A stretch of 64,000 nt of DNA from an uncultured Verrucomicrobiae bacterium. GTDB taxonomy: Bacteria; Verrucomicrobiota; Verrucomicrobiia; Chthoniobacterales; JAFAMB01. A program made the position numbers and the translations under genes. Positions 4,369 through 64,000 of the stretch are shown in pieces (position 1 is the stretch's first letter; every line of letters starts with the position of its first letter). The stretch is from positions 192,001 to 256,000 of the forward strand of contig CAVXLD010000003.1 of NCBI GenBank assembly GCA_963762565.1, written 5' to 3'. The notes below the pieces were generated by a model. It worked only from the letters and a program-made list of their open reading frames with translations, did not search any database and was not told where the DNA came from.

Positions 4369-4586
4369 ATGGTGAGAAGTGAGACGTGAAAAGTCAGTAA
4401 TAGCCGCGAAAGAACGCAAGGAACGCAAAAAGGTTTGCTTGGAGAAGGCAAGGCGATTGGTGATTGGTGATTTGTGGTTGGTAGTTCCCGGTGTTTTATA
4501 TAAGAATGAGCAGAAGCTCATCCCTAGCGGATTCCGGCCCTCCGAATTGCACTCGTGTAGCGGGTTGAAGTTGCTTTGAGCGCTGG

Positions 4587-17644: not shown

Positions 17645-17704
17645 GCATCGCTCTATTCCTTAAATTTGGTTTTGCGCCGGATTAATCTCTGGGAAGCGAC
17701 AGGG

Positions 17705-17879
17705 GGCGGAACGGCGAAAGGGCCAAAGGGCGAAAGGGCGAAAGGGCGAAAGGGCGAGGGGAGGGATCGCGTCCTCGCGATCCGTTGTTCGCGGAGATGG
17801 GCGGGTTTGGGTAAAGAGGAATCCAATAAACCGGTAGGTTTGGAACGTCTTCGCGGCGCGCGGGGACGCGATCCCTCCC
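17705..17879. repeat. Octamer tandem (GGCGAAAG-like) followed by an uninterrupted family A doublet
   Basis: About six octamer units, then GGGAGGGATCGCGTCC...GGACGCGATCCCTCCC. Confidence 0.8.
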
Positions 17880-24580: not shown

Positions 24581-25048
24581 CTAGCCTGGGAGAACATCGA
24601 TGATCGCCTCGATCTCAACGGCGATGCCCTGGGGGAGGCTACCGACTCCGATTGATGTCCGAGCATGCCGGCCGGCGTCACCGAGCAACTCAACAAAAAG
24701 GTCGGAACAACCGTTGATGACCGCCGGTTGATCTCCAAATTCTGGGGCAGAATTTACGAATCCGTTAACCTTAAGAATTCGTTTCACGCGAATTAAGGAA
24801 CCGAGTGCGCCGTTAATCACGGCCAAGATCTGAATTCCGCACAATCGGGCAGCTTCATAGCCTTGTTCTTTGGTGAGATCCTTACCGACTTGTCCGTGAA
24901 CCCAATCGCCATCCTTTGTCTTTGGCCCTTGGCCGGAGACGTAAAGAAGATTATCGGCCCGGGTGAACGGCACGTAGTTCGCCATCGCCTGCGGCAAAGG
25001 CGGCAATGTAATTCCAAGCTTAACTAAACGATCTTCGATGGTTTCCAT
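24581..25048 (-). CDS. RidA/YjgF family protein
   Basis: ANYVP, YVSGQGP, INGCSDL, GRHARTSIG, VEIE. Confidence 0.9.
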   Translation of the reverse strand: METIEDRLVKLGITLPPLPQAMANYVPFTRADNLLYVSGQGPKTKDGDWVHGQVGKDLTKEQGYEAARLCGIQILAVINGALGSLIRVKRILKVNGFVNSAPEFGDQPAVINGCSDLFVELLGDAGRHARTSIGVGSLPQGIAVEIEAIIDVLPG

Positions 25049-25187
25049 GGGTGGGAAGGGATGGGACGTGGATTGGTGGAGTGGCGGAGTAATGGAGTGA
25101 TGGGGTTTGCTTGAGAATGGTAGCCGTGAATCCGCATGTCGGACAGGTACAGATCGCGGGATTTTTTGAGAGTGGTTGCCAGGAGCC

Positions 25188-37959: not shown

Positions 37960-38007
37960 GCGCGATGCCGGTTGGTTTGCAACTGTCTATTAGTGAGGTC
38001 TCAAGTC

Positions 38008-41173
<3,166 letters not shown>

Positions 41174-41376
41174 TAGGTGAGAAGTGATTAGTGATTGGTG
41201 ATTGGTAGGTCGACGCGCCAGAAAGATCCAGCGATCCCGGCACCCTGTCGAGACCGAGCTATGCCGTATACAGCTCAGCACTTGTCAGAAAGGTGCTTCC
41301 TGTCGAGTTATTGGTAAAACCGCAAGCTGCCAGAGCTTGTTCGGTGCAAGACGTTGGCGTTTCGGTCTAACCGATG

Positions 41377-46861: not shown

Positions 46862-47042
46862 TCGTGAAACTCTTGCTCCACGAATGATCCGCTCTCAACC
46901 AAAAGATTGCGCTGCCTGGCCAGGATCTTTGAGCGTTGCTGGCAGGTCGTTAATCCGGTAGTGAAAGGTGAAATAGTAAATAGTAGATGGAGGATGTGGG
47001 ATGATAGGTGATGAGGTAAAAAAGGGCAAGAAGCCAAAAAGA

Positions 47043-49266: not shown

Positions 49267-49317
49267 GGTCGGGTGCTTTACTTTTCACCTTTCACCTTTC
49301 ACTTCACTCTCACTCTG

Positions 49318-56460: not shown

Positions 56461-56545
56461 AAAACGGGGGACGGAGTATTGGAGTATTGGAGTACTGCAG
56501 TGTTGGAGTACCGCAGTGTTGGAGTGCTGGGTGGAGTTTTTGCGG

Positions 56546-57691
56546 TCAGAACAGCGGGATTCCTAGAACTGCCTTTCCAATAAATTCCCGGAGGACATCA
56601 CCCGTCGGCGCCATCACGGCGCCCGCTTGAGCATCACGGAATAGCCGCTCAACATTCAGGTGTTTAGAGAAGGCTGAACCACCGCACACTCGCATGGCGG
56701 TCGAAGTGACGCCGATAGCAGTGTCGCCGCCGGCAGCTTTGGTCTCAAGCACGCGTAACATGGTCGTATCCCGCGGCCGCTCAAGATGGTCAACCAAGTC
56801 GTCGATGCGCGCGGAAAGGCCATCGGTATCGATCTGCATGGTGGCGAGCTGGGCGCGCAATGTGGGTAAGCTTTCTCCGAGTGTTTGTCCGAGATGCTCG
56901 AACCGAGCGGTCTTGAGATGCGTGGCCGTGGCTGCGACCGCGGCGCGACAGAGACCTAGGGCGACGGCCGCCGTACCCAGGCAAAACAGCGGCATTACCA
57001 CGTTTAACATGGCTGGGAAACCTTTCGCGTCGTCGGTGAGCTGGAGCTCCAAAGGGACCTCGCATCCATCGAATGTCATCGGAGCGGACGCGTTTGCGCG
57101 CAACCCCAACCCATCCCAAGCGCCCGCTATTGAAAGCCCGCGCAAACTAGCGGGAACCAGGTATAGTGTGGAATCGGTAGGACCTGTTCCTTCGGGCGCA
57201 AGCGTCGACACTACGTAACTGTGGGCGCAACCAGCGCTCGTTACCCACGACTTCTTGGCTGTGATGTAGACGCCGGCGCCGTTGCGGCGCGCGCGAGAGA
57301 TTGGCGCCCAAAAGTGACTTCGGGAGCCAGATTCGCTGAACGCGAGCGTGGACAAATGCTGGCCACCGGCGATGTCTTTAAGGGTCTGGGCAATGCCGGC
57401 TCCTGGGCGTGCCGCAGCGATGGTTGCGGTGGCACAGATATGCATCAGATACACCATTGCTACCGATGCATCGGACTCCGCCAGGGTTGCGGTAACCGCC
57501 GCAAATGCTCTCGGTCCGAGAGCTGCGCCACCAAGGTCTGCCGGTAACATCAGCCCGAGCAGCCCGGCGTTTCCCAAGGCTTCGATGGCCTCCGTTGAGA
57601 AACGACCTTCTTTATCATTTTGCCGGGCCGCCGGCGCTAGCACCCGGTTGCTTATCTCTTGAGCCTGTGAACACGCTGTTTCATGATTCAT
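56546..57691 (-). CDS. Acyl-CoA dehydrogenase family flavoprotein (Rv1679-like)
   Basis: TLAFSESGSRSHFWAP, KSWVTSAG, WDGLGLRANAS, ERLFRDA..G.VMAPT. Confidence 0.88.
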   Translation of the reverse strand: MNHETACSQAQEISNRVLAPAARQNDKEGRFSTEAIEALGNAGLLGLMLPADLGGAALGPRAFAAVTATLAESDASVAMVYLMHICATATIAAARPGAGIAQTLKDIAGGQHLSTLAFSESGSRSHFWAPISRARRNGAGVYITAKKSWVTSAGCAHSYVVSTLAPEGTGPTDSTLYLVPASLRGLSIAGAWDGLGLRANASAPMTFDGCEVPLELQLTDDAKGFPAMLNVVMPLFCLGTAAVALGLCRAAVAATATHLKTARFEHLGQTLGESLPTLRAQLATMQIDTDGLSARIDDLVDHLERPRDTTMLRVLETKAAGGDTAIGVTSTAMRVCGGSAFSKHLNVERLFRDAQAGAVMAPTGDVLREFIGKAVLGIPLF

Positions 57692-57869
57692 GATGCCTCC
57701 GTGGCGGCCACTCTATAGTGAGTTCTTTCATCAACCCAAGCAGCACTCGCGATGCGTCCCGTGAACCTGGCAAAGCGGCCTCAATTTGATCATTGTATGA
57801 AAAGAATCTCGCTGAGCCACACCAAAGTTGGAGTCTTTTCGCGCTCGTATTCCACGATTCGTGGGTCTC

Positions 57870-58895
<1,026 letters not shown>

Positions 58896-58940
58896 GAGGT
58901 CACGAAAACGTAGTTCGTTTTGCGCTGAGGCGACTATTTA

Positions 58941-59627
58941 ATGAAGCAGTTTTCCCAAGCGTTCAACGTTGTCAGTCAACACCGCCTGCTCAAAGTGCTT
59001 GATGAGACCTCGCAAGAAGGGCTCGCCGGAATCGCCAACTTGCGGGATTATGCCGGGGCTGAAGTTCTCTATCACGAGGGCGAGGACGCGACGGATGTCT
59101 GGGTGGTTGTGACCGGCCAGGTGCAGCTGGTAAAGCTGACCACCAAGGGTCACGAATTCATGATCGAGTTAGCCATACCTCAAGATTTGTTCGGTGCGGT
59201 TTTCTACGCCGACTGCCCGCGGTATCCGGTGACGGCGGTTGCCTTGGAGGCGGCTAGAGTGATCCATTTTCCAATCCGGGAAATGCACGATCTCCTGGCC
59301 CGGAATCCGCGTTTCATGAAGGAAGTGTTAGCTGACACCTGTATGCGCCTTTGTCATGCCCAACACATGCGAGGTTTGACTATTGAAGATGTTCCGATGC
59401 GAATTGCGGGCGCATTGGTTTACCTCTTTGAGAAATTTGGTCCGGAGATCCCGGAAAGCAGGGTCACGTTGGCTAAATTGGCTGGTACCACGGTTGAGTC
59501 CGCGATCCGGTTTTCGCGCCAGCTGGTCGAGGCGAAAATCATCGCCACCGAGCGCGGACGCATCGAGATCCTGTCGTCGAAACGGTTGTACAAATTTGCG
59601 GCTGAAGGTTCGATAGATTCCGAATAG
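58941..59627 (+). CDS. Crp/Fnr family regulator
   Basis: LYHEGE, GQVQL.K....G.E, FG, YPVTAVA, LAKLAGTTVESAIR. Confidence 0.88.
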   Translation: MKQFSQAFNVVSQHRLLKVLDETSQEGLAGIANLRDYAGAEVLYHEGEDATDVWVVVTGQVQLVKLTTKGHEFMIELAIPQDLFGAVFYADCPRYPVTAVALEAARVIHFPIREMHDLLARNPRFMKEVLADTCMRLCHAQHMRGLTIEDVPMRIAGALVYLFEKFGPEIPESRVTLAKLAGTTVESAIRFSRQLVEAKIIATERGRIEILSSKRLYKFAAEGSIDSE

Positions 59628-59634
59628 AAAAAAT

Positions 59635-59666
59635 GGTTCTTTTATGATGGTGATCATAGAAGAACC
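59635..59666. promoter_or_regulatory. Palindrome with Fnr-box-like core upstream of copA
   Basis: GGTTCTTTTATGAT-GGTG-ATCATAGAAGAACC. Confidence 0.55.
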
Positions 59667-59691
59667 GTAGGAGTCAGGGCTACCTTAGCTC

Positions 59692-62076
59692 ATGCAAGAG
59701 AGGCATGGGAACGACTCGGTTCGGCAAATGCCGGTTGAGGGGCACGGTCACGACGGACATCATCACGAGGGGCATCATTGCGCTCACGCCGCGCCTGTAA
59801 CTTCCGCATCGGAAACAGAAACCAAGCCCTATTATTGCCCGATGTGTCCGGGAGTCGAGTCGGAAGAACCTGGCGATTGTCCGAAGTGTGGGATGTCGCT
59901 GGAACCCAATCCCAGCTATCGCGCGTCTGCAGGTAAGGCGATTTATACCTGTCCGATGCATCCCCAGATCGAGCGGGATCATCCCGGCGATTGCCCGATC
60001 TGCGGGATGGCGCTGGAGCTCAAAACGGCCGGATTGGGTGAGAGTGGAGATTCCGAGGCCGAATCCCTGGCCGGAAAGTTTTGGCTGGGCGCGATACTTA
60101 CGGTGCCGATCCTCTTTCTTTCAGTCGGGAAGATGGTTCCGGGCTTAGGTCTCGGCCACCTGGTGCCGGCGCCGATTAACGAGTGGATTCAGCTCGCGCT
60201 GGCGACCGTGGTGGTATTCTGGTGCGGCGGCATCTTTTTCGTGCGGGCGTGGCGCTCGGTCGTCAATCGGAGCCTCAATATGTTTACGTTGATTGGGCTC
60301 GGTGTTGGGGCTGCTTATCTTTACAGCGCGATCGCGACGGTGTCGCCGGGCGTTTTCCCGGAATCGTTTAAGCATCGTGGCGAGTTGGATCTTTATTTTG
60401 AGGCTGCCGCCGTGATTACTGTGCTGGTCTTGCTTGGCCAATGGCTGGAGGCAAGGGCGCGGCGACGGACAGGTAAGGCCATCGAAGGGCTACTCGGTTT
60501 GGCCCCGAAGACGGCCCACCGTTTAACCGAGGCGGGCGTCGAAGAAGAGGTGCCGCTCGAGGCGTTGGAACCGGAGCATCTGGTTCGAGTGCGACCAGGG
60601 GAGAAGGTTCCAGTAGACGGAACGATCACCGATGGGGCGAGCTCAGTGGACGAATCCATGCTAACCGGTGAGTCGCTACCGGTTGAAAAAAACGCCGGTG
60701 ACAAAGTTATTGGCGCAACCCTGAATCAGACCGGTAGCTTTGTGATGCGGGTTGAAAAAACCGGGTCAGAGACGGTTCTCTCTCAGATCGTACAGATGGT
60801 CGCGGACGCGCAACGTAGCCGGGCGCCAATTCAAAAAGTGGCGGATCAAGTCGCAGGGTACTTTGTTCCGGCTGTCATTGCAGTCTCGATTCTCACGGCG
60901 TTGATTTGGGCGATTTGGGGTCCTCCGCCAGCGTTCGGATTCGCTGTGGTCAATGCGGTGGCCGTGCTGATCATCGCGTGTCCCTGTGCGCTTGGTCTTG
61001 CTACTCCCATGTCAATCATGGTGGGGGTGGGGCGCGGTGCGCAAGCCGGTATATTAGTAAAGAACGCTGAGGCTCTGGAAACCGCGGAAAAAATTACCCA
61101 TCTAATCGTAGACAAAACGGGTACCTTGACGGTTGGGAAACCGCAGATCACAGATTTAGTCAGTTCCGCCGGATTTGAGGAAAACGCTTTGTTGTCATTG
61201 GCGGCGGCGGTTGAGGTTCACAGCGAGCATCCGTTAGCTGGCGCGGTTGTCAGCGAGGCGAAGCAGAGAGGTATCCACCTGCGAGAAGCGGAGAAGTTCC
61301 AATCGATAACCGGGGCGGGTATCAAGGGGGTAGTAGATGATAGCGACGTGTTAGTGGGGAACCGCGACTTCTTACTAGGGAACGGAGTTAACGTTTCGGA
61401 CGAACTAACCGACCGAGCGGATCAACTGAGCGATCAGGCAAGAAGTGTGGTTTGGGTAGCGAGCGCGGGCCGAGCGGTCGGGATAATCGGGATTGCCGAT
61501 CCGGTCAAGGACACGACGGCGAGCGCAATCCAGCAGCTCCATGCTATGGGCATTACCATTGTGATGGCAACCGGCGATAATCCAAGAACGGCTCAAGTCG
61601 TTGCGCAGCGATTACGCATCGACGAGGTGCGAGCCGGCCTTAAACCGGAAGATAAACAGCGGCTGGTGCAGGAATTGAAGGCAAAAGGCGCGAAGGTAGC
61701 GGTGGCGGGCGACGGAATTAATGATGCGCCGGCTTTAGCCGCCGCGGACGTAGGTATCGCCATGGGCACCGGTACCGACGTCGCCATGCAAAACGCCGGT
61801 ATAACCTTATTGAGGGGAGATCTGAACGGGATCGCTATGGCGTTAATTCTCAGTAAGCAGGTTATGCAAAATATCCGCCAGAACTTGTTCTTCGCCTTTA
61901 TCTACAACCTGCTGGGAGTTCCGATCGCAGCGGGAATTCTTTATCCATTTGTCGGGCTTTTGCTTAACCCGATGATCGCCGGCGCGGCCATGTCCTTCAG
62001 CTCGCTATCGGTTGTGAGCAACGCGCTCCGGCTCACTAAGCTAAGTTTGGTGGGGCGAGGCTCCCGCGCGGTCTGA
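59692..62076 (+). CDS. copA: Cu(I)-type P1B ATPase
   Basis: His-rich N-terminus, YYCPMC/YTCPMH domains, [35 protein letters not shown]. Confidence 0.93.
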
Positions 62077-62339
62077 GAGCTTTTTCAGGGACTGCGGCCC
62101 GAACAAACATGAGGTATTTTCGGGTGTTGCGCCCGCCGAGCCGGACCCATGGTGTCGCTTTGATCCAAGGTTTTGCATAATACTTAGGTTCGATTATTTG
62201 GCCCGCCCTAGTTCATGATGGGCATTGCCAGGCGCTGGACCGCGGCTCGGCAATTTTTCGGCCCTTCCTGCTATAAAGAGAGACAACTTCAGGCGCCTTG
62301 CTCAGCCATTAAGGAAGATCCGGAGCCTCGCCCCACCAA
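62047..62339. repeat. Family C element overlapping the copA 3' end
   Basis: TTGGTGGGGCGAGGCTCC...GGAGCCTCGCCCCACCAA. Confidence 0.85.
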
Positions 62340-62386
62340 CCCTTTGACCTGCTCCGGCTATTTCCTGTCTTAGCGTTTATGGGGCT

Positions 62387-62611
62387 TTAGCCCTGGTCTC
62401 TCGAAGCGCAACACGCCGGGCCCTGTATGGACGGGCACTTTACTGAGCCGTATGAACAGAACACGCAGCAGTCACCCGGCTTGGGGCGAAGCAGGGTGTG
62501 ACAGCTCGTGCATTCGTAAAAGAACTGGCAGGAGTCGATCGGCATGGTCTCGCGCTTCGCGAAACCGCAGATCGGACAAACTAGCTCAGACTCCAAGATG
62601 GGCGTGTTCAC
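62387..62611 (-). CDS. GDCCVxC domain small Cys-rich protein
   Basis: CPICG...E.MP...C.FFYEC..C...LRPKPGDCCVFCSYG..KCP. Confidence 0.88.
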   Translation of the reverse strand: MNTPILESELVCPICGFAKRETMPIDSCQFFYECTSCHTLLRPKPGDCCVFCSYGSVKCPSIQGPACCASRDQG

Positions 62612-62649
62612 AGCAGATCTCGAAGATGAAATAGATGCAGATTACACAG

Positions 62650-62696
62650 CCCCGAACCCCGAAAGCTGTTCCCCCGGAGGTTTTCGGGGTTCGGGG
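62650..62696. other. Strong hairpin between merT-like and GDCCVxC genes
   Basis: CCCCGAACCCCGAAA...TTTCGGGGTTCGGGG. Confidence 0.7.
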
Positions 62697-62729
62697 GAAC
62701 ATTCTTCGGGGTAAAATTACGCGAATTAT

Positions 62730-63010
62730 TCAGTGTAAGTAGAAGAGAGGGATAAGCCAAGGCAAAGCGATCAAGCCGAAAGCAAGTGCGGACGTAATCC
62801 AAAATGCCAATCGCAAGCTCTTTATTGGGTTGTGTTGGACGCGGGACGATTCGCGATCACAAACCCGGGGGCAATAGATGCGATGAAAGGAATAGAAGTG
62901 GAAGGGTAGTGAGAGGTTAAAGAGTGAGAAGAGATATGAGAGTTAAAGAATAAGTATAGCGCAGCAGAGCTGATTTTAGTAAAAAGAATGTTTTTGTTTG
63001 CGCCTGATAT
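62730..63010 (-). CDS. merT: MerT-like mercuric transporter; 5' part corrupted, start approximate
   Basis: C-terminus reads LRLAFWITSALAFGLIALPWLIPLFYLH*; CC codons at ~62962-62967. Confidence 0.6.
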
Positions 63011-63049
63011 GGGTATCTCTAATCTGAGACGGAAAGGTAATTGGAGTAG

Positions 63050-63700
63050 GTTGTTGTGTTTGTTAAGGGTAAGGGTTTGATTTTTAGTAAATGTTGTTTT
63101 AGCGTTTGGTTTTTCTGGTTAAGATTGCTGTGCGATGTTGAGATGTTGAATGAGTTGCTGCGTTTGCGGATGTGCGTTTGCGAGATAAAAAACGGTGTTG
63201 AAGCGTTTGGATAAATTCAGTGCGTAGTTTCTGATGTCAGGGTGATATTGGCTCTTACGCGGCGCACTATCGCTGCGAGATGTTCGCGCTTCTATTTGCT
63301 AAGAGCATAGATGTCAGCGCTGCGGTACGAGTCGGTTATGGCAGTGAAGCTTTTAGACTCTGTAGCATCAGAGACAATGGTTAACTCATTAAAAGACACT
63401 CGTTTTTTTCAAAATAGATGTACGCTTGGTGATTGATTCGCGGTTGGAGGTTTCGGACAGACAACGGCTAATATGTTCCCGTGCGTTGAGCTAGGCCTCG
63501 CTAATTGCTGGGTCATGCTCGAGCTCGAGTAGAATGGTTTAGATATGCTGCCGCAACGATTTGCGGAGCGGCTTCGCATCTGAATGTACTGCGAAAAAGG
63601 TGACGTCTCCTGTTCTTGCTTTGACGATCGCGTCTTCGGCTAGAGCACACGTGGCACTCAGCAGTGCAAGAAAGCCGGTGGTCAATCTGGTTCTGTGCAT
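63050..63700 (-). CDS. Exported protein with reconstructed C-x7-C motif; many indels, end approximate
   Basis: Signal MHRTRLTTGFLALLSATCALA; frame-corrected FRCEAAPQI(G)CGSISKPILLELEHDPAISEA. Confidence 0.6.
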
Positions 63701-63723
63701 AGGATGAATCGTTCTCGGTAGGC

Positions 63724-63755
63724 ATCCTACACTCCGGAGTAGAGTACGGAGTAAG
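63724..63755 (-). promoter_or_regulatory. MerR-type operator/promoter
   Basis: CTTACT-20 bp-TAGGAT with dyad ACTCCG-N10-CGGAGT; resembles the Tn21 mer operator half-site TCCGTAC. Confidence 0.8.
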
Positions 63756-63765
63756 GCCGCTCTGA

Positions 63766-64000
63766 TCATTCAGCCAGGCTTTCAATAATCGGGCAAGCTT
63801 CAGGATCTCGGCGTTTCGCGCACAGAGATGTTTTAGAGAGAGCGGCCTGTATCCTCCGTAACTGTGTGAGTTTTCTTGACCGAATCTAGGTTTTCTAGAG
63901 CGAGTTTTTGAACTTGTTGGCAGTCAGAGCTGGATAGCTCGAGCAGCGCGCGAATATCCGCGAGTGAAAATCCGAGGTGCTGAGCGCGGCGGATGAAACG
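63766..64000 (-). CDS. merR: Hg(II)-type MerR regulator, 3' part, one frameshift near 63870
   Basis: RFIRRAQHLGFSLADIRALL..DCQQV then LTQLRRIQAAL..LCAKRRDPEACPIIESLAE*. Confidence 0.85.

Follow-up and report, generated by a model that had tools for sequence, protein, structure and literature searches.

Probable remnant of a merA-less mercury-transport cassette and cytosine-depleted tracts in a Verrucomicrobiae contig

Elements of the mer-like locus

We analyzed a 64,000-nt stretch of contig CAVXLD010000003.1 (assembly GCA_963762565.1, positions 192,001 to 256,000) from an uncultured Verrucomicrobiae bacterium, hereafter the window, and concentrated on a mercury-transport (mer)-like locus at its end (62387-64000, minus strand). 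Followed in the direction of transcription, the locus comprises the 3' part of a merR gene, a degenerate mer operator/promoter, two overlapping open reading frames (ORFs) without relatives, a possible merP relic, the C-terminal half of merT, a hairpin and a GDCCVxC-domain gene, the only intact gene among the parts of the cassette (Table 1). An earlier, sequence-only reading had interpreted these elements as a hidden, non-canonical mer operon, in which an exported protein with two cysteines stands where MerP would be expected. Five of its six elements proved real, but the key two-Cys motif is absent from the DNA. The analyses below favour a relic over a concealed functional operon.

Table 1. 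Features of the mer-like locus and the cytosine-depleted tracts, with positions in the window (HMM, hidden Markov model; nt, nucleotides; aa, amino acids)
Feature	Position	Strand	Basis or remark
merR, 3' part, Hg-type, cut by the window end	63767..64000	-	PF09278, TIGR02051, frameshift-aware profile
Degenerate mer operator/promoter	63724..63755	-	Ungapped alignment with the merR-merT intergenic region of six canonical loci
Overlapping 90-codon ORF, other frame, carrying CEAAPQIVAAAY	63513..63785	-	No homologue, no family
Orphan ORF with signal-peptide-like start, 76 codons long or 53 counted from its ATG (63700)	63539..63769	-	No family, no homologue
Possible merP relic, a single frame of 91 codons interrupted by one stop	63019..63291	-	Core 63144..63031, MerP columns 50-87
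merT relic, C-terminal half	62730..62945	-	tblastn, profile and HMM matches
GC-rich hairpin between merT relic and GDCCVxC gene	62650..62712	-	Folding against shuffles
GDCCVxC-domain gene, 74 aa, GTG start, nine invariant Cys	62387..62611	-	NF041374
C-depleted tract (mer tract)	62870..63230	+	Composition; plus strand 4-10% C, mer coding strand nearly G-free
C-poor intergenic tract of 1 kb (large tract)	57870..58900	+	Between divergent fadE16-like and crp-like genes

The merR piece is read in two frames. The first (64000..63836, stop 63835-63833) matches PF09278 (E 9.1e-12), with the MerR entry TIGR02051 as its best NCBIfam hit (E 1.4e-8), and the second (63885..63769, stop 63768-63766) ends in ...EACPIIESLAE and covers positions 90-124 of TIGR02051, again the best NCBIfam model (E 1.4e-4). 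The frameshift site is an A-run at about 63871-63877; a frameshift-aware alignment to a MerR profile, built from 25 sequences of related loci, spans columns 52-131 with a single shift (83 bits). The MerR C-terminal half with three Cys, as described earlier, is present and Hg-type, its Cys codons (63922-63920, 63822-63820 and 63795-63793) aligning to conserved Cys of the 25 locus MerRs and the last two lying nine residues apart, the same distance as in the MerR of plasmid pRA2. The three metal-binding Cys fall in one protein, however, only if the A-run frameshift is read through. Because a czcA-like gene in the window is also frameshifted, the shift in merR may be an assembly error.

The mer-type dyad promoter with a long spacer is likewise real, though imperfect. 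All seven aligned rows share its left half-site, TCCGTAC, without a difference, whereas the right half-site, CTCCGGA, agrees at five of seven positions with the GTACGGA or GTACGGG of the canonical loci. A -35-like CTTACT and a -10-like TAGGAT hexamer stand in register, at the same spacing as in the canonical loci. A generic sigma-70 scan, which permits spacers of 16-18 nt only, returned no promoters, the operator site included. The orientation of merR departs from the canonical one: the gene is co-directional with the elements that follow, and its stop, not its start, adjoins the operator, whereas canonical merR diverges from merT over the dyad operator that they share.

Following the coding strand, recognizable merT is confined to the last ~60 codons (62924..62733, stop 62732-62730), with an in-frame TAA at 62945-62943. 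The MerT-like C-terminus noted in the sequence-only reading was borne out by tblastn, in which 62915..62739 aligned with residues 57-116 of pRA2 MerT (E 2e-12, 41.7% identity), and by an HMM built from the MerTs of the related loci, which matched over columns 57-116 (independent E-value 1.3e-7); a frameshift-aware alignment spanned columns 54-116 only. The Pfam model PF02411 scored 18.2 bits, under its cut-off of 32.9, and the second Cys of the MerT loop pair is aligned to an Arg. A search for the N-terminal half in 62916-63766 gave 12.1 bits (z -0.2; z 0.6 in a second scoring), every model remaining at z <= 2. An intact MerT of about 116 aa, with the CC pair in the first helix and the Cys pair in the loop, is thus not encoded.

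Upstream of merT, the core of the MerP-like stretch aligned with pRA2 MerP in tblastn (E 0.010), and its profile score of 20 bits was equalled by one of 300 and none of 300 shuffles and, in a separate scoring, by one of 300. Judged by this resemblance, the stretch is probably a merP relic. It amounts to 38 C-terminal codons without a CxxC, and the signal peptide, HMA fold and CxxC of an intact MerP are missing. No merA was found, as the sequence-only reading had stated: none of the 14 window ORFs of at least 400 aa matches a MerA model.

The hairpin between the merT relic and the last gene also holds up (-43.8 kcal/mol, z -3.6), with none of 200 shuffles folding as well. No U-tail follows it, and a terminator scan returned three terminator-like sites against 2.3 expected.

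The GDCCVxC gene is the last of the cassette, the next gene downstream being a convergent copA-like ATPase gene. Its identification was confirmed by a full-length match to NF041374 (E 5.8e-30; 103 bits, cut-off 40; positions 1-56 of the 58 in the model), and in a 38-sequence alignment its product keeps all 19 invariant columns, the nine Cys among them. The protein shows no difference from the rest of the NF041374 family, which is itself uncharacterized. An AlphaFold model computed from the same alignment (mean predicted local distance difference test score 82.5) has two short hairpins and a small helical end. A Foldseek search of the PDB with this model gave no match at E <= 0.001 among 479 at E <= 10, the weak top matches being zinc-ribbon and zinc-finger proteins, and the family name 'GDCCVxC' was not found in the literature searched. 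Judged from its nine invariant Cys and from the mer and copA genes that neighbour it, the product is most plausibly a small cytoplasmic, zinc-ribbon-like binder of soft metals. The idea that the locus sequesters rather than reduces metal is putative and concerns this protein alone. Conserved, rich in invariant Cys and lacking a solved structural relative, it is worth attention in its own right.

Close to this gene, we observed a perfect 18-nt inverted repeat (62047-62064 and 62322-62339, 257 nt between the arms). Its left arm lies in the last codons of the copA-like gene and its right arm about 50 nt past the GDCCVxC stop; it could be an insert resembling a miniature inverted-repeat transposable element, or a long-range stem.

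The stretch between promoter and merT relic

The 755 nt from 63700 to 62946 require at least six frame switches to be read without a stop, or 8 per kb, compared with two over 3198 nt in czcA and none over 2382 nt in copA. With an indel rate in czcA of about 0.6 per kb, the error rate seen in the window is an order of magnitude too low to conceal an operon in this gap. From the ATG at the merT position to the GDCCVxC start, the locus measures 1089 nt, whereas pRA2 has 646 nt, so that even a perfect sequence would not attain the canonical layout.

Homology searches recovered the same few pieces. Among 45 stop-to-stop fragments (at least 20 aa, both strands, 62600-64000), two matched Pfam, as MerR and MerT, and 43 matched nothing; the Pfam HMA model was matched by none of them. 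Complementarily, tblastx against 81 loci recovered the MerR and MerT C-terminal pieces only, plus four spurious high-scoring segment pairs. The latter, at 63321-63229, were considered as a possible conserved gene and rejected as chance matches, being antisense to an integrase gene in one locus and three related loci. In blastn of 62380-64000 against plasmids, the GDCCVxC gene alone was matched among 282 records, at about 77% DNA identity, and the middle of the region matched nothing.

The proposed exported protein falls within this gap. Relative to the promoter, the 76-codon ORF occupies the position of the merT start, beginning about 25 nt downstream, and from its ATG it resembles, by inspection, a Sec signal peptide (MHRTR, a hydrophobic stretch, ALA-ED). 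An ORF with a signal-like start therefore exists as claimed, but the motif reconstructed for it, CEAAPQI(G)C or C-x7-C, does not: the DNA reads CEAAPQIVAAAY, in the overlapping frame 63785..63513 and with no second Cys. The sequence carries C-E-A-A and no CxxC, the metal-binding motif of MerP and HMA domains.

Database searches gave these ORFs no relatives. The 76-aa ORF had no homologue at E <= 0.001 in phmmer against 1,835,955,588 representative proteins, and the 90-aa ORF holding CEAAPQIV had none in a word-indexed search of 5.8 billion clusters. Neither matches Pfam, and the lone NCBIfam row for the 76-aa ORF, cytochrome c7, is at chance level (E 0.059-0.15; 13-14 bits where the cut-off is 120). 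Scoring with the MerP profile stayed at noise level as well, both over the signal-peptide ORF (63296-63766; equalled by 56 of 300 shuffles) and, with MerP columns 20-60, over the CEAAPQIV stretch (63400-63640; equalled by 214 of 500). Two likenesses seen by eye, that of the signal-peptide ORF to the first helix of MerT and that of 'VTFFRSTFRCEAAPQIV' to the MerP metal-binding loop, did not score above noise, and we make no claim for either.

A 'larger non-MerP exported binder' is accordingly not upheld: its ORFs have no homologues, family or second Cys, the gap is unreadable, and a MerP-like relic lies further downstream. The predicted linkage of homologues of the C-x7-C protein to merR and merT could not be recovered, as the searches made found no homologues of either ORF. 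The signal-peptide-like ORF may have arisen by chance, or else it may be what erosion has left of the beginning of a lost gene, at the point where merT should start. The case shows how manual frame-by-frame reading can build a plausible 'novel protein' from the overlapping frames of a pseudogene.

Known cassettes and the reading of the locus

A cassette with the same content is annotated on pRA2 (NC_005909), where RefSeq gives a divergent merR, merT, merP and the GDCCVxC gene in a row beside a Tn3-family transposase; this is Tn5563. In passages of PMC4785139, the Tn5563 mer locus is described as incomplete and defective. The window locus has the same gene set without merA, its GDCCVxC protein is 69.7% identical to that of pRA2, the merT C-terminus is alignable at the identity given above, and the operator aligns. 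In pRA2, however, the four genes are intact and tightly packed, with merT before merP, whereas in the window merR is co-directional and meets the operator with its 3' end, merT and merP are relics, the merP-like piece lying 5' of merT, and a 125-nt, hairpin-bearing spacer precedes the GDCCVxC gene.

Operons of the Tn21/Tn501 type have the order merR-merT-merP-(merC)-merA-merD. The locus shares with them the Cys in the MerR dimerization helix and the two C-terminal Cys nine apart, the dyad operator in an over-long spacer, and the MerT C-terminus ...PWL.PLFY. It differs in lacking merA, merD and merC and in having no intact transport genes. A merT combined with a Cys-rich cytoplasmic protein in the absence of merA is an already known arrangement; a literature search on mer operons without merA found nothing directly relevant.

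To this comparison we added 80 related loci, collected with the window's GDCCVxC protein from genomes other than its own (best identity 79%). Neighbours were counted from crude ORFs by blastp to the pRA2 proteins, and 71 of the 80 loci have at least 1.5 kb of upstream sequence. MerT lies within 1.5 kb of the GDCCVxC gene in 22 of the 80 loci and MerP in 24, a MerR-family gene lies within 2 kb in 22, and all three accompany it in 19; a copA-like ATPase is found within 5 kb in eight. None of MerT, MerP or the MerR family is near the gene in 53 of the 80. Since the GDCCVxC gene has outlived its decayed transport partners in the window, and since these 53 relatives have no mer neighbour, its distribution suggests a role that does not depend on MerT and MerP. 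The closest GDCCVxC relative (79% identity), in the locus from CAVTKZ010000001.1 (7369-8210 in the numbering of that locus), adjoins an ORF that by eye resembles an extracytoplasmic function sigma factor, and has no mer genes.

Taken together, we read 62387-64000 on the minus strand as what pseudogenization has left of a mercury-transport cassette without merA, one of the known merR/operator/merT/merP/GDCCVxC type, with a probability of roughly 60%. It is breakage, and not an unconventional make-up, that hides the operon from the ORF track. Of the sequence-only interpretation, the mer-type cassette without merA thus stands, but it is of a known kind and decayed, its concealment comes from breakage, and the new exported binder is unsupported. 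In its present state, the locus would not be able to import Hg(II) via MerT and MerP; the GDCCVxC protein could possibly still be working, and so could MerR if the assembly introduced its frameshift in error. If the MerP-like stretch 5' of the merT relic is a second fossil, rearrangement would have occurred in addition to decay.

Several points weigh against the pseudogene reading. The assembly is frameshifted elsewhere (twice in czcA), so part of the apparent decay could be error. Decay was measured against distant homologues, the best related GDCCVxC locus having 79% protein identity and no mer genes. The MerP relic is not significant in hmmsearch (independent E-value 1.1), and by lying 5' of merT it inverts the order found in canonical cassettes. 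Codon-periodicity tests lack power at these lengths, merR and the merT C-terminus themselves giving p > 0.5. Finally, the window edge cuts merR, leaving its N-terminal helix-turn-helix domain and its own promoter outside.

As a mer locus, the remnant carries little weight, being one further, broken example of a merA-less merR-merT-merP-GDCCVxC cassette of a type annotated on many plasmids.

Cytosine-depleted tracts, rival explanations and other features

The composition of the locus is less ordinary than its gene content. Within the mer tract, C-free runs extend over 62882-62959 (78 nt), 62971-63000 (30 nt) and 63031-63102 (72 nt). The merT frame extends into this tract, and the MerP-like frame of exactly 91 codons lies within it. 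Ordinary drift would not be expected to strip nearly all G from the coding strand across ~360 nt. The large tract, about 4 kb away, has 0% C over 58298-58537 (240 nt) and 58593-58784 (192 nt) and ends, just upstream of the crp-like gene, in ~80 nt of poly(A) with few scattered G (58817-58900). For comparison, 81 other loci totalling 980,075 nt contain no C-free run of at least 45 nt. The C-free tracts are not tandem-repetitive but complex, with distinct k-mer counts close to those of composition-matched shuffles. Rfam (E <= 1, 57000-64000) returned two snoRNA matches only, both well under their gathering scores. A genome-wide habit of G-poor 5' leaders was considered and rejected: upstream of 42 ORFs, sense-strand G averaged 0.247 against 0.255 for C, and G was below C in 20 of the 42.

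Such tracts are highly unusual for bacterial sequence of 54% G+C and, if real, would indicate a process of mutation or insertion for which there is no description in bacteria. They may be an artefact, lineage-specific non-coding DNA, or the product of a strand-specific mutational or insertional event, and their base composition is the sole feature of the locus that might be new. The risk that this anomaly is an artefact is substantial.

Motif searches tied the large tract to ordinary parts of the window. The 12-mer GATGGAGTGRTG has four copies in the large tract (58093-58329) and one, with one mismatch, at an ordinary intergenic site (25091-25102), that is, five matches against 0.58 expected, a number reached by none of 100 shuffles. 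Together with small three-letter stretches elsewhere, this recurrence implies that at least part of the anomaly is genuine genome sequence.

As observations in their own right, the 12-mer belongs to a ~45-nt unit that is present in the C-free tract and again upstream of the gene 24581..25048 (minus strand), and intergenic three-letter stretches of 30-70 nt occur at 4455-4486, 41164-41210 and 46957-47026 (C-free on the plus strand) and at 49276-49316 (G-free). Several short three-letter stretches are built of GTGATTG-like or GGTGAAA-like units, and 17691-17766 is a T-free run of GGGCGAAA-like tandem units.

If the whole pattern were an artefact, the genes would be intact in the real genome, and the unreadable, C-depleted stretch and the large tract would stem from template that was damaged or modified, from long reads with wrong base calls or from a chimeric join at low coverage. 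Genes that are otherwise good contain three frameshifts (two in czcA and the one at the A-run in merR), which speaks for this, as do the strand-specific loss of a single base and the long C-free runs and poly(A) without parallel in the other loci. The complexity of the tracts, the recurrence of GATGGAGTGRTG at an ordinary locus and the smaller C-free and G-free stretches in other intergenic regions argue against it. Moreover, the orientation of merR and the about 440 nt of extra length would be non-canonical even if every base were right, and the indel rate of the czcA type falls far short of the frame switches needed. We therefore regard a purely artefactual origin as unlikely.

Still less probable, in our view, is that a strand-specific process in vivo, rather than slow drift, destroyed the mer cassette and also produced, 4 kb away, the C-free tract that ends in poly(A). 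Single-stranded DNA could have been deaminated or oxidized while exposed, or filler DNA, either non-templated or foreign, could have been inserted. Besides the loss of C itself and the mer frames that run into or lie inside the tract, two compositional features fit: T reaches 0.41-0.43 in the right half of the mer tract, as expected from C-to-T conversion at the genome's average composition, and the retained C is mostly preceded by G (69% against a background of 32%, n = 26), with modest CpG enrichment. The large tract, however, is A-rich (A 0.36-0.46, T 0.28), unlike a C-to-T product of ordinary DNA. It also lacks fossil codon periodicity (chi2 of 2.3, where genes of similar length give 47-85), a test that is uninformative for pieces of less than 300 nt. 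Self-BLAST in C/T-collapsed and other collapsed alphabets found no mutated duplicate of either tract, giving low-complexity matches only in the window.

We further scored hypermutation codon by codon, each codon being counted as its best pre-mutation codon under 12 single and 12 paired base reversals and compared with shuffles. G-to-A or G-to-T hypermutation of merP gained no specific support, as restoring G did not beat the controls (z 6.9 for G from T and 4.7 for G from A, against 7.95 for the control restoring C from T). The same hypothesis fared no better for the MerT N-terminus, where all z were <= 2 and none exceeded 1.5 in a second scoring.

Clusters of strand-coordinated cytosine deamination are known as kataegis, and repeat-induced point mutation (RIP) is a fungal process. 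The window resembles both in the loss of a single base from a single strand along hundreds of positions, and some of the mer tract has a T excess of the C-to-T type. It differs in the complete depletion over 240 nt, in the A excess and poly(A) end of the larger tract, and in containing no duplicated partner sequence. If the in vivo process were true, the strand-specific removal of a base would be a bacterial counterpart of kataegis or RIP, or the footprint of inserted non-templated or reverse-transcribed DNA. In the portions of text that literature searches returned, engineered editors and the DddA toxin appeared and no natural localized hypermutation in bacteria did; those on hypermutation or RIP and on polypurine tracts likewise yielded nothing directly relevant in such portions.

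The reading as a functional operon of non-canonical make-up, concealed only by a few sequencing errors and having a novel exported protein with two Cys in place of MerP, paired with MerT and the GDCCVxC protein, is largely refuted: the signal-peptide-like N-terminus, the short distance to the mer-type promoter, a T5 run where two frames would join and the frameshifts elsewhere in the assembly are outweighed by the absent second Cys, the lack of homologues or any family match above chance, the frame switches needed before merT, and a merT that is itself truncated and interrupted.

Beyond the cassette and the tracts, the czcA-like resistance-nodulation-division gene (37972-41172) shifts frame near 40440 and again near 40940, so that its reading occupies three frames; either the assembly is prone to indels or this is a second metal-resistance gene in decay. 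The region 29913-57691 is rich in metal(loid)-related or rare clusters, including arsenosugar genes (an arsS-like radical SAM gene and a TIGR04282 glycosyltransferase), ihpA/ihpB-like exporter parts and an Rv1679-Rv1681-like trio encoding an acyl-CoA dehydrogenase, a protein resembling solute-binding proteins and a radical SAM protein. In the leader of the Rv1680-like binding-protein gene (56472-56538, minus strand), the motif WACTCCR is repeated five times, three of the copies being 8 nt apart; the window holds 42 copies of this motif in total against 24.6 expected, two of them in the mer operator-like site.

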